Shown here: positions 413 to 9,700 of the stretch, piece by piece
Position numbering within the stretch: position 1 is the stretch's first letter
How the letters are laid out: the number at the start of each line of letters is the position of its first letter
From: a virus
Taxonomy: Duplodnaviria > Heunggongvirae > Uroviricota > Caudoviricetes
IMG/VR virus record: IMGVR_UViG_2728369593_000019
Strand: one strand, 5' to 3'
DNA length: 14,079 bases
Notes under the pieces: generated by a model
What the model saw: only the letters and a program-made list of their open reading frames with translations
What the model was told of the DNA's origin: nothing
Database searches by the model: none
Translations under genes and position numbers: made by a program

Positions 413-570
413 AACATTTAAGCTGATGACCCCCACGCTTTTTATTGACCATTTTGCACGCAAACTGGAAAACCTGGCGTCGTCATCTATTCTTAAAGAG
501 CAAGGCAACTAAGCCTGCATTAATGCCAACTTTTAGCGCACGGCTCTCTCCCAAGAGCCATTTCCCTGGA

Positions 571-602
571 CCGAATACAGGAATCGTATTCGGTCTTTTT
601 TT
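571..602 (+). terminator. Second hairpin plus T-tract between host gene and integrase; may be part of the attL region
   Basis: Stem CCGAATAC (571-578) pairs with GTATTCGG (586-593) around a 7-nt loop, followed by a T-run at 594-602. Its 3' half plus T-run recurs at 670-686. Confidence 0.4.
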
Positions 603-636
603 AATTGTATTTAAAATCAATCAGTTGCAAACGTCT

Positions 637-6947: not shown

Positions 6948-7169
6948 TTACCATGACTCCGCCTTTACAGGTAAACCATCACGACCGAGGAAGACTTTAA
7001 TCATGCAGTCAGAAATGCATGTTTTTGTAGTCAGGCTACGAATATAAAGTTTTCGCTTTTTAATATTGTTTGCCGAGGCGATATATGTCCGACCTTCATG
7101 AAGAACATAATCGCCAGGGGTCACACACTGACGTGGTATTTCATCAGTTCCGAAGTGATGAGCAATCAT
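6948..7169 (-). CDS. Small protein (73 aa), candidate Kil-family cell-division inhibitor (KilR-like), by position and length
   Basis: ATG at 7169 with a GGAGAT ribosome-binding site 4 nt upstream gives [14 protein letters not shown]..., 73 aa. It lies immediately downstream, on the same strand, of the DicF-like RNA, where Qin carries dicB and Rac carries kilR. Not similar to my memory of DicB. Confidence 0.55.
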
Positions 7170-7334
7170 AATTATCTCCATTTTTACAAATGAATTTTGT
7201 CGATGCGGTGCCTGGTGCCTCCAGGTGACGTTAACCAGTTAACAATTAACGCCGGATAATCCACCCATAACACTGATGATTTTAACTGTGCCGCGTGCGC
7301 TTAGCCGCATTCACCGCATCACAAAATTCACTTT

Positions 7335-7393
7335 AAAAAGGGGCGGCAGGGCAGCCACGGAGTAGAACTGATGCCGCTAAAGACTACACACAG
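7335..7393 (-). ncRNA. dicF: DicF-like small regulatory RNA (prophage sRNA that targets ftsZ mRNA in E. coli K-12)
   Basis: Minus strand reads ...TTTAGCGGCATCAGTTCTACTCCGTGGCTGCCCTGCCGCCCCTTTTT. This aligns with E. coli DicF as I recall it (TTTGGCGGTATCAGTTTTACTCCGTGACTGCTCTGCCGCCCTTTTT), including the 3' GC-rich terminator stem (GCGGCA with TGCCGC) and U-tail. The 5' end is approximate. Confidence 0.7.
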
Positions 7394-7569
7394 CAATGTC
7401 GTTATTTACAACCGGAGGCGCACTCCCACCATTTAAATTTAACAGACAAGACCGACTCTTTATGAATACCGGAAATGCGCCTTCGTGTTGTGCCCGGTTT
7501 TATTTCACCACCTCCGGGCTTTGGTGGTATCTTTACTGAAGTTCTCACACAACCAGTAAGGAAATGAAT

Positions 7570-7860
7570 ATGCCAACGTATCTCGCCAGAGTAGAACTAT
7601 ATAATGCTGAGCCAGAGGATTACGAAGGGCTTCATAAATATATGCTCTCACTAGGATTCAGGAGAACGATCCCCCATGGAGATGGTTCGTATAATCAACT
7701 CCCGGACGGAACTTATGTTTCCGAAAAGGGCGGTGATATTTATCAAATTCGCAGCCAGATATCTGACTATGCAGACCGACTATCCAGGTATCGCGCGTCT
7801 GTTTTTGTTTGCGAATTCAGTCAATGCGCATGGTATTTATACCCCGCCAAGACCCGGTGA
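7570..7860 (+). CDS. Lone plus-strand gene (96 aa), uncharacterised, convergent with the repressor-proximal early operon
   Basis: ORF track gives 7564..7860. The second ATG at 7570 has an AAGGA ribosome-binding site 7 nt upstream; the first ATG at 7564 is only 1 nt from it. Protein MPTYLARVELYNAEPEDYEGLHKYMLSLGFRRTI...: no signal peptide or transmembrane segment seen. Preceded by about 180 nt of non-coding sequence. Its 3' end overlaps the 3' end of the YdaG-like gene by 24 nt. Confidence 0.55.
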   Translation: MPTYLARVELYNAEPEDYEGLHKYMLSLGFRRTIPHGDGSYNQLPDGTYVSEKGGDIYQIRSQISDYADRLSRYRASVFVCEFSQCAWYLYPAKTR

Positions 7861-8040
7861 ATATCCTGCACGGCCTTCTGCTTTGTAGAAGGCTTCTTCG
7901 CTATCATAATCGCCAGATTCCAGTGCTTCTTTAGCCAGCCAGATGCGTGCCCCAGTGCCTGCATTTGGCTCCAGTTGCTGGAGGCGTTTTGCATCTTCCA
8001 GGAGTAGAGCGATAACGTGTTTTAATTCTGTCTCGTTCAT
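7837..8040 (-). CDS. Small protein (67 aa), YdaG/YdfB-like by position
   Basis: The track ORF starts at a GTG (8049). The first ATG at 8040 gives MNETELKHVIALLLEDAKRLQQLE... and overlaps the stop of the upstream YdaF-like gene. Second gene after the repressor on the leftward strand, as in Rac and Qin. Confidence 0.5.
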   Translation of the reverse strand: MNETELKHVIALLLEDAKRLQQLEPNAGTGARIWLAKEALESGDYDSEEAFYKAEGRAGYSPGLGGV

Positions 8041-8041
8041 T

Positions 8042-8197
8042 TTACTCACCTGAATGTCTTCCCAACCAACGACGTGCGCCAGCTTCGGTTTTAAACGTTT
8101 TGCTTTTGGTATACGTCATGGCGGTGAATGTGCCGTCCTGATTGGGAAACACGCCACATACCAGAGATTCGTTGTTGCCAAGATCGATAGTATCCAT
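8042..8197 (-). CDS. Small protein (51 aa), YdaF/YdfA-like (DUF1391-like)
   Basis: Internal ATG at 8197 with a GAGGT ribosome-binding site 7 nt upstream gives MDTIDLGNNESLVCGVFPNQDGTFTAMTYTKSKTFKTEAGARRWLGRHSGE, 51 aa. That is the length I recall for Rac YdaF and Qin YdfA, and it is the first gene leftward of the repressor. Confidence 0.6.
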   Translation of the reverse strand: MDTIDLGNNESLVCGVFPNQDGTFTAMTYTKSKTFKTEAGARRWLGRHSGE

Positions 8198-8381
8198 GTT
8201 GACCTCATTTCCCCTTAACGCCGGGTGGCGGAACGTTTTATCTACTGCGCTTTGTATCAATCAACAACTGCCGTCATGTTCGTATGCCTCAGGCTGGCTA
8301 CTTAGCCCTGTTCAGTGGCTGGATAACTCGAGGTATTGTCCTGCCGTTCTCTGGTGGGGCGTTGTTTGGATATGGCAAATG

Positions 8382-8420
8382 CTCACATATCGTGAGTGTT
8401 TTGTCAACTCAATATGTGAG
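8382..8420. promoter_or_regulatory. Candidate left operator pair: two TCAC-N5-GTGA-type inverted repeats in front of the leftward early genes
   Basis: CTCAC-ATATC-GTGAG at 8382-8396 is a perfect inverted repeat. CTCA-ATATG-TGAG at 8408-8420 is a near copy. Same half-site as the three sites between repressor and cro-like gene. A TTGACA hexamer on the minus strand lies between them. Confidence 0.45.
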
Positions 8421-8448
8421 CAATGTTGCTTTTGGATTTTTGATGGAC

Positions 8449-8482
8449 AAAAAAAGCCCTCGCTAATAGCGAGAGCTTTTTG
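8449..8482. terminator. Bidirectional rho-independent terminator downstream of the repressor gene
   Basis: A-run at 8449-8455, stem GCCCTCGC-TAATA-GCGAGAGC (7 of 8 bp paired), T-run at 8477-8481. Sits 26 nt beyond the repressor stop, so the minus-strand reading (U-tract from the A-run) ends the repressor transcript. Confidence 0.6.
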
Positions 8483-8507
8483 ATTGGAATCGAGGGAGAT
8501 TAAAGGC

Positions 8508-8897
8508 TTAGGAGGATTTTTTCTGTTGCCTGCTTCTTAGATATTTTTCCACATACTCATCAAGCTCTTGAAGACGGATTTCGAACAGATCAATCATGCG
8601 TGCTTGTTCCGATCCTGGGAGCTGATTAAACAGTTCTAGCATTTTTTTCTGGTTATCATTTAACCACGAGTAAGTGTTTTCCTGTTCACCGAACATTAAT
8701 TCTGCGGGGGAAATGCCTAGTACCTGGCCGAGGATGATCGCATCCTCAGCCCCCACACTCCTGGTGCCAGCTTCGTAGTTAGCAATACGAGAAGAACCTG
8801 ACCAACCACATAGTTTTGCCAGGTTTCCCATACTTAATCCTCGATTTAGGCGAGTGGCTTTTAGTCGCTCGCCTATTTGTTCTGCAATGGTTTTCAT
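8508..8897 (-). CDS. Prophage repressor, XRE-family helix-turn-helix, DicA/RacR type (no LexA-like S24 peptidase domain)
   Basis: ATG at 8897 with a GGAG ribosome-binding site gives about 129 aa: MKTIAEQIGERLKATRLNRGLSMGNLAKLCGWSGSSRIANYEAGTRSVGAEDAIILGQVLGISPAEL... (helix-turn-helix). C-terminal LELFNQLPGSEQARMIDLFEIRLQEL resembles DicA (LELFNALPESEQ...) as I recall it. Divergent from the cro-like gene. The track ORF extends to 9002 with no ribosome-binding site. Confidence 0.85.
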   Translation of the reverse strand: MKTIAEQIGERLKATRLNRGLSMGNLAKLCGWSGSSRIANYEAGTRSVGAEDAIILGQVLGISPAELMFGEQENTYSWLNDNQKKMLELFNQLPGSEQARMIDLFEIRLQELDEYVEKYLRSRQQKKSS

Positions 8898-8910
8898 AGC
8901 TCCGATTTTA

Positions 8911-8978
8911 TCACGATGTGTGAAATTAGCGGTACTCACGTATCTGTAGTTGATCTTGCTCACGAAATGTGAATAATA
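8911..8978. promoter_or_regulatory. Candidate right operator/promoter region: three TCAC-N5-GTGA-type sites at 25-bp spacing overlapping a rightward sigma70-like promoter
   Basis: TCAC-GATGT-GTGA at 8911-8923, TCAC-GTATC-TGTA at 8936-8948 (imperfect), TCAC-GAAAT-GTGA at 8961-8973. TTGATC at 8950-8955, 17-bp spacer, ATAATA at 8973-8978, oriented towards the cro-like gene. The third operator overlaps the spacer and -10. Confidence 0.55.
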
Positions 8979-8991
8979 GAAACAGGAGGTA

Positions 8992-9237
8992 ATGATGAAC
9001 AAAATTTCAACATATCGAAAACAGCTTGGGCTGTCTCAAAGACAACTTGCTGTTCAGTTAGGGTGGATACAAAGCCGACTGGCAAATTACGAAGCAAATT
9101 TTCGTACCCCTGGGCTAGAGGAGTGCAGAAAAATTGTTTCCACCCTTAATCGGCTTGGTGCTCATTGTGGACTTGACGATGTATTCCCCCCAGACGGTAA
9201 GCATAGCGAAAACAGCATAGGAGCGGTTGATTCATGA
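8992..9237 (+). CDS. Cro-like / YdaS-like helix-turn-helix regulator
   Basis: 81-aa ORF divergent from the repressor. KQLGLSQRQLAVQLGWIQSRLANYE is a helix-turn-helix. AGGAGG ribosome-binding site at 8984-8989; ATGs at 8992 and 8995, the second better spaced. Stop overlaps the next ATG (ATGA at 9234-9237). Confidence 0.75.
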   Translation: MMNKISTYRKQLGLSQRQLAVQLGWIQSRLANYEANFRTPGLEECRKIVSTLNRLGAHCGLDDVFPPDGKHSENSIGAVDS

Positions 9238-9656
9238 AAATCAGGCATGAGCACATCGAATCAGTGTTGTTAGCCCTGGCAGCCGAAAAAGGGCAGGCGT
9301 GGGTCGCTAACGCAATTACTGAAGAATATCTGCGCCAGGGGGGCGGCGAATTGCCCCTGGTACCAGGCAAGGACTGGAACAATCAGCAGAATATCTATCA
9401 CCGTTGGTTGAAAGGTGAAACGAAAGCGCAAAGGGAAAAAATTCAGAAACTGATCCCTGCGGTTCTGGCAATTCTTCCGCGCGAGCTGCGTCACCGACTC
9501 TGCATCTTCGATACCCTGGAACGCCGTGCATTACTGGCGGCGCAGGAAGCGTTGAGTACGGCAATTGATGCGCATGATGATGCAGTCCAGGCTGTTTACC
9601 GGAAAGCACATTTCAGCGGCGGAGGATCGCCCGGCGATTCTGTCGTAGTGCATTGA
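9234..9656 (+). CDS. Hypothetical 140-aa protein translationally coupled to the cro-like gene, in the YdaT/cII position
   Basis: AGGAG ribosome-binding site 10 nt upstream of the ATG at 9234. The cro-like plus 140-aa arrangement matches Rac ydaS-ydaT; the sequence identity to YdaT is not verified. Confidence 0.65.
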   Translation: MKIRHEHIESVLLALAAEKGQAWVANAITEEYLRQGGGELPLVPGKDWNNQQNIYHRWLKGETKAQREKIQKLIPAVLAILPRELRHRLCIFDTLERRALLAAQEALSTAIDAHDDAVQAVYRKAHFSGGGSPGDSVVVH

Positions 9657-9700
9657 TTGAAATTAATCGTGCCGGACTGTTTTGTTCGGTATCAGTTAAA

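Follow-up and report, generated by a model that had tools for sequence, protein, structure and literature searches.

A candidate lambda-like operator layout around a short DicA-related repressor in an Escherichia coli prophage immunity region

The locus described here lies within a 14,079-bp stretch of phage DNA, the whole of which was analysed and is referred to as the window, and is organized around a short repressor gene separated by ~100 bp from a divergent Cro-like gene, which is followed by a YdaT gene (Table 1). To the left of the repressor, beyond a terminator, a leftward promoter precedes an operon with the same gene order as the ydfA-dicF-dicB operon of the Qin prophage. DicF is one of four Rfam matches in the window, together with RalA, SraC/RyeA, and SdsR/RyeB, and no Rfam family was found within the immunity region, including the conserved PL leader, whose seven homologues are too alike in sequence for RNAalifold to yield covariation support. 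At the other end of the locus, an inverted repeat of the YdaT type occupies the PRE-region operator position; the YdaT site of CP-933P has been placed at the ydaS/ydaT junction (PMC9986795).

Table 1. Features of the immunity region and its neighbours (positions in the window).
Feature	Position	Strand	Description
Kil gene	6948-7181		Follows DicF in the PL-driven operon
DicF sRNA	7341-7392	-	Rfam
Start of PL-driven operon	7341..8200	-	DUF1391/YdfA-like gene, small ORFs, DicF sRNA
DUF1391/YdfA-like gene	8042-8200	-	Domain scan
PL-like leftward early promoter	8379..8407	-	-35 TTGACA (8407..8402), 17-nt spacer, -10 GAGCAT (8384..8379) after TG
OL1 candidate operator	8383..8395	none	Perfect palindrome TCACATATCGTGA (CTCAC-N5-GTGAG); within PL spacer, 2-nt overlap with -10
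OL2 candidate operator	8406..8420	none	Imperfect site AACTCAATATGTGAG; CTC replaces CAC, GTGAG half good; abuts PL -35
Intrinsic terminator of the repressor transcript	8449..8481	-	9-bp GC-rich stem, ATT loop, U7
Repressor, 129 aa	8508..8897	-	XRE/HTH_3 (residues 4-69), linker, C-terminal helical hairpin (81-128)
Candidate PRM	8905..8913	-	Extended -10 TGaTAAAAT; TG from right arm of the 8911 site
OR3-like candidate operator	8911..8923	none	Perfect palindrome TCACGATGTGTGA; 13 nt from repressor start codon, overlaps candidate PRM
OR2-like weak candidate operator	8936..8949	none	TCACGTATCTGTAG; left half perfect, right half degenerate (CAC-N6-GTA); ends just upstream of PR -35
PR	8950..8977	+	TTGATC (8950-8955)-N16-AATAAT (8972-8977); 9/12 consensus matches, sigma-70-like
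OR1-like candidate operator	8960..8972	none	Perfect palindrome TCACGAAATGTGA; within PR spacer, 1-nt overlap with -10
Cro-like (YdaS-like) HTH protein, 80 aa	8995..9237	+	Resembles the repressor family in its recognition region (GWIQSRLANYE)
YdaT-type inverted repeat	9227-9244		TTGATTCATGAAAATCAG; PRE-region operator position; one mismatch to the CP-933P repeat
YdaT (CII-analogue) gene	9234..9656	+	Pfam

An earlier note on this DNA had called the repressor DicA-type and devoid of a self-cleaving peptidase, and both parts of this description hold. The Pfam scan of the protein returned HTH domains only (HTH_31, 2e-9, and HTH_3, 5e-8, over residues 7-67) and no match to Peptidase_S24, while its AF2 model (pLDDT 90) comprises a five-helix N-terminal domain, matching the N-terminal domains of P22 c2, 434 and lambda CI, followed by helices 81-92 and 95-128. 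By sequence, the repressor is a distant homologue of K-12 DicA (BLASTP, 29% identity over 132 aa spanning both domains, E 6e-15), with which it shares the C-terminal motif LELFN.LP.SEQ. A direct homology to lambda CI, on the other hand, was dropped, as the BLASTP match was not significant (E 1.2); only the repressor subtype found in the DEC5A prophage could be aligned with the N-terminal domain of lambda CI (31% identity, E 2e-6), its GWTQSRIG facing GMGQSGVG. A PDB sequence search returned generic HTH matches only, and over its full length the AF2 model came closest to the structure of SinR of Bacillus subtilis (1b0n_A), which likewise combines an XRE HTH with a C-terminal helical hairpin, in SinR the docking surface for the small antagonist SinI; this is a weak match (TM 0.43/0.53, 19% identity) to a non-phage protein and serves as an analogy only.

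A window-wide motif search, as suggested in the earlier note, found three exact copies of TCAC-N5-GTGA, starting at 8383, 8911, and 8960, all of them in non-coding DNA and flanking the repressor gene on both sides. This compares with an expectation of 0.15, and a count of three was reached in 1 of 200 shuffles. A search tolerating one mismatch shows no enrichment across the window (8 matches against 5.2 expected); what carries the signal is the exact copies and where they lie. The claim of three 13-bp inverted repeats between the repressor and cro can be kept for the two outer sites but not for the middle one (TCACGTATCTGTA), the right arm of which reads TGTA, with CAC-N6-GTA as an alternative reading; nor is their spacing exactly 25 bp, since the TCAC starts (8911, 8936, and 8960) lie 25 and 24 bp apart. 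Likewise, of the two further copies claimed on the left, one is perfect, whereas the other (8407-8419, ACTCAATATGTGA) pairs a good half-site with a half carrying a single mismatch, CTC for CAC. Occupancy of this second left site and of the degenerate middle right site is assumed to depend on cooperativity.

The sites fit the geometry of the promoters. The three right sites overlap both PR and the candidate PRM, the left cluster covers the leftward early promoter, and the OR1-like and OL1 sites occupy the same position relative to the -35 and -10 elements at PR and PL. The rightward promoter had been read as TTGATC-N17-ATAATA; it does overlap the 8960 site, but ATAATA is one base off the best reading, N16-AATAAT, and the TTGAC and -10 elements are kept at the same place across the repressor family. 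A PL-like leftward early promoter, which had been expected at the left sites, was located on the minus strand as TTGACA-N17-GAGCAT, a sequence missed by a consensus scan because its -10 matches at 3/6 positions; its layout is kept in the short-type relatives, with TTGAC(A/T) abutting CAC-N5-GTG in DEC5A, pAEv1818, Chris1, L010, L012-L014, L016, and the Salmonella locus L035. The putative PRM was placed from a conserved pattern, GTG-n-TAnnn(T/A/G) followed after 6 to 9 nt by ATG, which recurs in lambda and in those family loci that have the -26 site (counted from the repressor start); with 7 nt between the end of its -10 and the ATG, this promoter would yield a repressor mRNA with little or no leader. 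The transcription starts predicted from these elements are at about 8984 for PR, 8372 for PL, and 8897 for PRM. The bidirectional terminator reported between the repressor and the left sites was also recovered, as a hairpin with flanking A and T runs that folds on both strands, at -19.4 kcal/mol (z = -6.65) on the minus strand and more weakly, at -16.1 kcal/mol and with T5, on the plus strand.

Our comparative analyses indicate that these sites travel with the DNA-binding domain of the repressor. The set of loci sharing the same HTH ('CGW..(S/P)R..NYE', n=15) includes the window, DEC5A, pAEv1818, Chris1, mEpX1, S107, L010-L017, and Salmonella L035, and CAC-N5-GTG sites occur within 150 nt upstream of the repressor in all 15, across several genera, whereas none of the 11 loci sharing the C-terminal domain alone carries such sites upstream. 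In the 14 same-HTH loci other than Salmonella L035, 30 upstream sites were counted in ~2.1 kb compared with 5 in the remaining ~40 kb. Relative to the repressor start, the sites occupy positions of about -26 (in 14 of the 15 loci, L017 being the exception) and about -73, and most short-type loci have one or two further sites 50-116 nt past the repressor stop. In phage pPE4, which encodes an identical repressor, three of the four exact sites in 47.5 kb are those of the window. Across six same-type sequences, no substitution affects a half-site base; the OL1 and OR3-like sites are invariant, and the OR1-like site varies at one central N5 base alone. For Salmonella L035, whose repressor is 84% identical, the half-sites are kept, including those of OL1, while the N5 centres and the surroundings have changed. 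The weaker sites follow their own pattern, the OR2-like site being imperfect in all family members examined and nearly identical in Salmonella L035, and the OL2 position holding a perfect site in DEC5A, Chris1, pAEv1818, L012-L014, and L016. It could be argued that the palindromes arose by chance or are remnants that regulate nothing, given that the relaxed motif is not enriched and that two of the five proposed sites are degenerate, but the excess of exact copies, their equivalent placement at PR and PL, and their conservation at the same positions in 15 loci, together with their absence upstream when the HTH differs, make this extremely improbable, and it was rejected on the exact-site statistics and the conservation across same-HTH loci. 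The lambda-style two-operator layout proposed in the earlier note is thus upheld by sites at fixed positions relative to PR, PRM, and PL, and the repeats very likely do serve as the sites bound by this short prophage repressor, which does not cleave itself.

The bases flanking the CAC cores also track the HTH subtype of the repressor, amounting to the co-variation expected of immunity specificity: GWSG(S/A)(S/P)R is paired with (C/T)TCAC..GTGA(A/G), GW(T/A)-QSR with AACAC..GTGTT, and GW(S/A)TASR with GACAC..GTGTC. This bears on the question of which protein reads the sites. The palindromes might be mainly operators of the Cro-like (YdaS-like) protein, with the short repressor binding elsewhere or to a subset only, and the close similarity of the Cro-like HTH to the recognition region of the repressor family would fit this, as would the finding that the Cro-like protein is 100% identical in DEC5A, where both the repressor (64% identical) and the operator subtype differ, and the report that, in CP-933P, the YdaS footprint falls in the intergenic region also footprinted by the repressor (PMC8630535). 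However, the flanking bases co-vary with the repressor HTH subtype and not with Cro, and the S24-type CI proteins of mEpX1 and S107, which have a homologous HTH, are associated with the same sites. Since the operators of lambda and CP-933P are common to both proteins, binding by Cro is in any case compatible with binding by the repressor, and an exclusive or predominant role for Cro appears improbable.

Taken together, we put at roughly 0.8 the probability that the segment from 8376 to 8994 constitutes the immunity cassette of a Rac/Qin/CP-933P-like lambdoid prophage of E. coli, with operators, Cro, and induction working as follows. The 129-aa repressor, an XRE-type HTH joined to a helical-hairpin oligomerisation domain, would bind (C/T/A)TCAC-N5-GTGA(A/G), presumably as a dimer. 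On the right, it would occupy OR1 (8960) in the PR spacer, the weak OR2 (8936) by the PR -35, and OR3 (8911) over PRM, and on the left, OL1 (8383) in the PL spacer and OL2 (8406-8420) by the -35 would serve to shut off the DUF1391/DicF/Kil operon. The Cro-like protein, with its closely related recognition helix, probably reads the same CAC-N5-GTG cores, which would create a bistable switch, and YdaT would act as the CII analogue. The most likely trigger would be an antirepressor protein whose gene lies outside the window, on this prophage or a different one, as in the GfoR/GfoA and DicA/Rem pairs, and spontaneous Cro-driven flipping may provide a second induction route. What has been shown here concerns the sites, with their statistics, their placement around promoter elements and their co-variation with the HTH, as well as domain content and homology; that the repressor binds, fills the weak sites cooperatively, and activates PRM, and what the inducer is and how it is regulated, we infer. 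Relatives with this architecture and with control by antirepressors have been described (PMC3121763, PMC10448788, PMC8630535, PMC3441716).

As it lacks an S24 peptidase domain, the repressor cannot be removed by RecA-stimulated autocleavage, and the earlier conclusion that induction must take another route agrees with the Gifsy GfoR/GfoA (PMC3121763) and Qin DicA/Rem (PMC10448788) systems. By analogy, the prophage in the window may be induced by an antirepressor. No antirepressor gene, Ant-type or otherwise, and no DinI gene was found in the window with Pfam and PHROGs across every sizeable ORF, and tblastn detected no homologue of Qin Rem in the window, pPE4, or the E9 prophage. The window has no exact match to the LexA box CTGT-N8-ACAG, its one-mismatch matches being GC-rich and at chance level, and the sole exact LexA-like box of pPE4 lies inside a tail-fibre gene. 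These results could also be read as pointing to correct operators with antirepressor-independent derepression, either by spontaneous or stress-driven (temperature, urea, or growth-phase) loss of binding followed by Cro takeover or through a host protease. In Qin, dicBp becomes derepressed in ~1% of cells with no need for RecA or Rem, and it is induced by urea or heat (PMC10448788), so the main route may be one other than an antirepressor; binding by DicA is better at 25 C than at 37 C (PMC3441716), and the states of the CP-933P switch are bistable and heritable and have no relation to SOS (PMC8630535). On the other hand, the pPE4 record contains three Ant-type candidates (AntA at 38401-38889, KilA-N/ORF11CD3 at 19473-20006, and ORF6N at 15830-16411) alongside the identical repressor, antirepressors have been shown to act on the Gifsy and Qin relatives (PMC3121763, PMC10448788), and the hairpin of SinR, the best full-length structural match, is the target of a small antagonist. 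We therefore consider derepression without an antirepressor possible but the less probable course, and favour an antirepressor as the trigger.

The comparison with DEC5A also suggests how such cassettes are exchanged. Divergence from this prophage runs from ~8376 to 8994, coinciding with the region singled out in the earlier note, and is largely unalignable beyond ~8790; the boundary falls at the cro ATG, and the Cro-like protein does not change with the operators. If the exchanged cassette stops there, one identical Cro would serve both the CTCAC..GTGAG and AACAC..GTGTT subtypes. A tentative broader reading, which we advance as a speculation less likely to be right than wrong, is that one HTH/operator design is combined with interchangeable C-terminal modules (S24 or hairpin) and that the repressor alone sets immunity specificity. 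The S24 autocleavage module of mEpX1 and S107 would then have its counterpart in the helical hairpin of the window repressor, presumably the part that senses an antirepressor. If true, Cro would read the shared core alone and the repressors the flanks, unlike in lambda, 434, and P22, where the rule is that cro moves along with cI and the operators. Such loci would offer natural pairs for studying the evolution of SOS-cleavable and antirepressor-dependent repressors on one DNA-binding design. The present map, with five sites and three promoters, covers a rare E. coli prophage immunity type, found in 10 E. coli genomes among 5,426 complete genomes and in phage pPE4, and defines operator subtypes for the wider short-repressor family across Enterobacterales, which may aid annotation and the prediction of superinfection immunity.

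Among known systems, lambda provides a close geometric parallel; because a MAFFT alignment to lambda OR was uninformative, the two were compared by coordinates. The centre spacings in lambda OR are 23 and 24 bp, nearly superimposable on the right operators of the window; in either system the three right operators are spaced 23-25 bp centre to centre, OR1 lies within the PR spacer and overlaps the -10, and OR3 overlaps PRM (a candidate here), in which the -10 follows the operator GTG and the repressor ATG comes 6-7 nt past the hexamer. In lambda, 6 nt separate the PRM hexamer TAGATT from the ATG, and the near-leaderless repressor mRNA predicted here would resemble that of lambda cI. The operator core is also common to lambda OR2 (AACAC-N5-GTGTT) and OL1 (TCAC-N5-GTGG). 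Unlike lambda CI with its S24 peptidase, the window repressor ends in a helical hairpin of 50 aa; the left side shows only two operators instead of OL1-3, and no N/nut system was identified at this locus.

The dicA-dicC/dicBp region of Qin is similar in having a short HTH repressor with a LELFN.LP.SEQ C-terminal domain, a divergent Cro-like gene, and, directly downstream of the repressor gene, a second repressed promoter with an operator in its spacer that drives ydfA (DUF1391), dicF, and a cell-division inhibitor; PL has the same geometry as dicBp and is its equivalent. DicA has no Ala-Gly site for cleavage, and its repression is lifted by the antirepressor Rem (PMC10448788). The Qin operator Oc, on the other hand, is TTGTTAG-N6-CTAACAA (PMC3441716) and not TCAC-N5-GTGA, the window has in addition a terminator and a ~170-nt leader, and its Cro-like protein is of the YdaS type, not DicC. 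The PaaR2/YdaS/YdaT module of CP-933P, from E. coli O157:H7, shares a short CI analogue (PaaR2 being likened by description), YdaS and YdaT as Cro and CII analogues, several operators overlapping PR and PRM, and a PL with OL sites, and its operator sites have been footprinted experimentally (PMC8630535). It differs in its 18-bp operator repeats with half-site GTTTAGTAA and in the paaA2-parE2 toxin-antitoxin pair of the repressor operon, which is absent from the window.

GfoR, GtgR, and GfhR of the Salmonella prophages Gifsy-1, -2, and -3 are, by description, similarly small, non-cleavable lambdoid repressors; induction occurs when the antirepressors GfoA, GftA, and GfhA bind the repressor and release it from its operator, and DicA and RacR are listed in the same group, with homologues in most E. 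coli genomes (PMC3121763). Unlike the Gifsy antirepressor genes, which are LexA-controlled, neither a LexA box nor an antirepressor gene was found in the window. The CI proteins of mEpX1, VT1-Sakai, and Salmonella S107 have an N-terminal HTH 56-58% identical to that of the window repressor and TCAC/ACAC-N5-GTGA/GTGT operators in the same three positions, but they are 212-215 aa long with a LexA-family S24 peptidase C-terminal domain (Pfam) and are therefore presumably cleavable, and their PL is not directly downstream of cI; a literature search for published operators of VT1/H-19B-type CI gave no description of this operator. The idea of a non-cleavable repressor relieved by an antirepressor is already published for Gifsy, Qin DicA/Rem, and CP-933P, and current understanding is unchanged, as short non-cleavable repressors with a lambda-like two-operator layout are documented for the same three systems, of which well-described switch this locus is an ordinary new example.

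Exact copies of the inverted repeat TCAC-N5-GTGA occur three times in the 14-kb window (8383, 8911, and 8960) versus 0.15 expected, a count reached in 1 of 200 shuffles, and all three lie in non-coding DNA flanking the repressor gene on both sides; copies with one mismatch are not enriched window-wide (8 versus 5.2 expected). The earlier note described three 13-bp repeats at exact 25-bp spacing to the right of the repressor, of which those at 8911 and 8960 are perfect but the one at 8936 (TCACGTATCTGTA) is degenerate, with a good left half and a right arm reading TGTA, or GTA with a 6-nt spacer, and the steps between TCAC starts measure 25 and 24 bp. Of the two copies placed to the left, 8383 is exact, whereas 8407 (ACTCAATATGTGA) has CTC instead of the expected CAC. 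An additional CAC-N5-GTG match within the repressor coding sequence (CACTCCTGGTG) is probably a chance match because its center is GC-rich and T/A flanks are absent.

Features of the immunity region and its surroundings in the window
Feature	Position	Strand	Remarks
SraC/RyeA and SdsR/RyeB	462-606		host sRNAs
YdaT-type repeat	2115-2132
DUF1187 and Lar-type ORFs	2164-2581
RalA antitoxin sRNA	2168-2346	plus	214 bits
Kil gene	6948-7181		PL operon
DicF sRNA	7341-7392	minus	Rfam RF00039, 53.8 bits; PL operon
PL leader	8205-8375	minus	~170 nt, PL to first gene
PL -10 GAGCAT	8384..8379	minus	TG before -10
OL1	8383 (start)		exact
OL2	8406-8420		degenerate
PL -35 TTGACA	8407..8402	minus	17-nt spacer
Repressor, 129 aa	8508-8897	minus	between the two arms
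CAC-N5-GTG match	8756-8766		in coding sequence
OR3-like	8911 (start)		exact
OR2-like	8936 (start)		degenerate
OR1-like	8960 (start)		exact
Cro-like gene	8995-9237		2720-2962 in DEC5A locus
YdaT-type repeat	9227-9244
YdaT-type repeat	9653-9670

For comparison, homologous loci were drawn from phage records, one genome per species, and one Salmonella assembly. Fifteen encode repressors with the same HTH (CGW..(S/P)R..NYE), comprising the window, the Escherichia coli DEC5A prophage, Aeromonas phage pAEv1818, Citrobacter phage Chris1, mEpX1, Salmonella phage S107, the Salmonella locus (L035), and prophages of Kosakonia, Pectobacterium, Enterobacter, Citrobacter, Dryocola, Raoultella, and a Sphingomonas-labelled contig. 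CAC-N5-GTG palindromes are present upstream of the repressor in all 15, with sites ~26 and ~73 nt from its start and, between them, a consistently imperfect site adjoining a TTGAC -35; most loci of the short type (no S24 peptidase domain) carry one or two more sites 50-116 nt beyond the repressor stop, adjoining another TTGAC. Across 14 of these loci, 30 sites fall in ~2.1 kb of upstream DNA versus 5 in ~40 kb elsewhere, and upstream sites are absent from all 11 loci sharing only the C-terminal domain (different HTH, ARIAGVTPQAVNGWF). Among the same-HTH loci, the two bases outside CAC vary according to how the recognition helix begins: GWSG(S/A)(S/P)R is paired with (C/T)TCAC..GTGA(A/G), GW(T/A)-QSR with AACAC..GTGTT, GW(S/A)TASR with GACAC..GTGTC, and GWAAPSR with ATCAC..GTGA(T/A). 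The Salmonella repressor is 84% identical to that of the window, with an identical HTH, and its locus keeps every good half-site, whereas the N5 centers and surrounding DNA differ; among six same-type sequences (97-99% identical), half-site bases carry no substitution, which in so small a sample lends weak support. Taken together, the sites and their positions, the negative control, the flank co-variation, and these footprints make a strong, though indirect, case that this HTH reads the palindromes as its operators.

The predicted operators stand in the same geometry at the candidate rightward (PR) and leftward (PL) early promoters, with a perfect site inside the spacer and in contact with the -10 (8960 and 8383, respectively), and a weak site beside the -35 (8936 and 8406-8420). 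The rightward promoter reported to overlap the repeats is real, although its best register is TTGATC-N16-AATAAT; PL, located by eye, was missed by the consensus scan because its -10 matches at only three of six positions. The 8911 site is 13 nt from the repressor ATG, and, in the repressor direction, its right arm yields GTGaTAAAAT, an extended -10 ending 7 nt before the ATG and a candidate for the repressor promoter (PRM). The proposed bidirectional terminator, located after the repressor stop and before the left sites, is strong in the direction of repressor transcription (-19.4 kcal/mol, z -6.65, then U7) but weaker on the opposite strand (-16.1 kcal/mol).

The window and the DEC5A prophage are identical up to ~8375 and again 98% identical from the cro ATG at 8995, but in between they differ in operators and terminator and share ~85% DNA identity over the 3' two-thirds of the repressor gene, and from ~8790 onward OR and the part of the gene encoding the HTH mostly cannot be aligned; the exchanged unit thus coincides with the interval flagged in the earlier note. 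The repressors are 64% identical, whereas the Cro-like proteins are 100% identical, and the operator flanks are CTCAC..GTGAG in the window versus AACAC..GTGTT in DEC5A. Classical imm regions include cro; here, the mosaic junction at the cro ATG places it outside the exchanged cassette, which is unusual. The recognition region of the Cro family (GWxQSRLxNYE) closely resembles that of the repressor, and the Cro-like protein may plausibly read the shared CAC-N5-GTG core. The cassette is rare (10 of 5,426 complete E. coli genomes) and also occurs, with an identical repressor, in the phage record pPE4.

The repressor has only HTH domains in Pfam and is 29% identical to K-12 DicA across both domains (BLASTP, E 6e-15), which bears out its description as a DicA-type protein without a self-cleaving peptidase. 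Its AlphaFold model (pLDDT 90) consists of a five-helix HTH, which superposes on the N-terminal domains of P22 c2, 434, and lambda CI, a flexible linker, and a C-terminal helical hairpin; the best full-length structural match, SinR in the SinR/SinI complex, is weak (TM 0.43/0.53). Over its first 74 residues, the repressor is 58% identical to the HTH in S24-type CI from mEpX1 and VT1-Sakai (56-58% when S107 is included), and these three loci use the same operators in the layout of the window. The C-terminal 50 residues (the hairpin) resemble other short repressors, including ones with an unrelated HTH. Sharing of the HTH with S24-type CI and of the hairpin with unrelated-HTH repressors is evidently the product of domain shuffling among cleavable and non-cleavable types.

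The window covers the left half of a lambdoid prophage of E. coli, whose insertion site adjoins yebY and the SraC/RyeA-SdsR/RyeB sRNA locus at the prophage-chromosome junction. The leftward arm encodes int, xis, DUF1187, and a Lar-type protein, together with the RalA sRNA; a YqaJ-type exonuclease, Gam, a RecT-family recombinase (Bet), and a protein containing an exonuclease VIII (RecE-type) domain; and Kil, the DicF sRNA, and a DUF1391/YdfA-like gene. The rightward arm carries the Cro-like HTH protein, YdaT, an O-like initiator, and a DnaC-like loader. With DicF and Kil in the PL operon, the left operon that the repressor would shut off is a dicBF-like cell-division-inhibitor operon. RalA lies opposite the DUF1187 and Lar-type ORFs, and ralR is annotated at the equivalent place in the related E9 prophage. 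The PL leader is 100% identical in DEC5A, which has the other operator subtype, and its conservation is ~76-80% among phages and prophages from other genera, including cases where another gene follows; it has no Rfam match, and RNAalifold on seven sequences gave no covariation support. Inverted repeats of the TTGATT-N6-AATCAA type, the published CP-933P YdaT binding site, are enriched in the window (7 matches with up to two mismatches versus 1.25 expected); one copy, with a single mismatch, is at the cro-stop/ydaT-start junction (the position of a PRE analogue), and another, just upstream of xis, could be a PI analogue.

Since the S24 domain is absent, RecA-stimulated autocleavage is not available to this repressor, as had been anticipated. 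Gifsy repressors are likewise uncleaved and are freed from DNA by LexA-controlled antirepressors, and DicA and RacR have been named in the same group (PMC3121763). An antirepressor route would be the most likely one here by analogy, and pPE4 encodes, outside the immunity region, proteins with AntA, KilA-N/ORF11CD3, and ORF6N domains. No LexA box is obvious at any of these genes, and no LexA box, Rem homologue, or Ant-type or DinI-type gene was found in the window. A Cro-driven or stress-driven flip of the switch is a serious alternative; in Qin, DicA is relieved by Rem, and dicBp also switches on spontaneously without RecA or Rem (PMC10448788). The pPE4 record (PP818812.1, 'Actinobacillus phage vB_Apl-pPE4') is attributed to Actinobacillus pleuropneumoniae, a host that looks doubtful; over its immunity region it matches E. 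coli prophage DNA at 97% identity, and it carries the typical E. coli lambdoid genes RecE, RecT, KilR, and Hok.

By membership, the locus belongs to the DicA/Gifsy/CP-933P class of short non-cleavable repressors, whose biology with such switches is already established; the specific operator of the window was not found described in the literature searched. The left operon of the window (DUF1391, DicF, Kil) and its second promoter, lying straight after the repressor gene, mirror Qin dicA-dicBp, but the Qin operator, TTGTTAG-N6-CTAACAA (PMC3441716), differs from TCAC-N5-GTGA, as do the GTTTAGTAA repeats of CP-933P, where PaaR2, YdaS, and YdaT make up a bistable lambda-like switch, mapped by footprinting, that includes OR and OL (PMC8630535). 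The lambda-style reading of the earlier note is correct except for how many of the sites are perfect, their spacing, and the promoter register. The locus would work like the lambda switch and shares its operator core and PRM design: lambda OR2 is TAACACCGTGCGTGTTG, i.e. AACAC-N5-GTGTT, OL1 (TATCACCGCCAGTGGTA) has the same core, and operator centers are 23 and 24 bp apart in lambda versus 25 and 24 bp in the window. The lambda PRM transcript is leaderless, and OR3 GGTGA leads into TAGATT, with the cI ATG 6 nt further on, the same arrangement as at 8911 and the PRM candidate.
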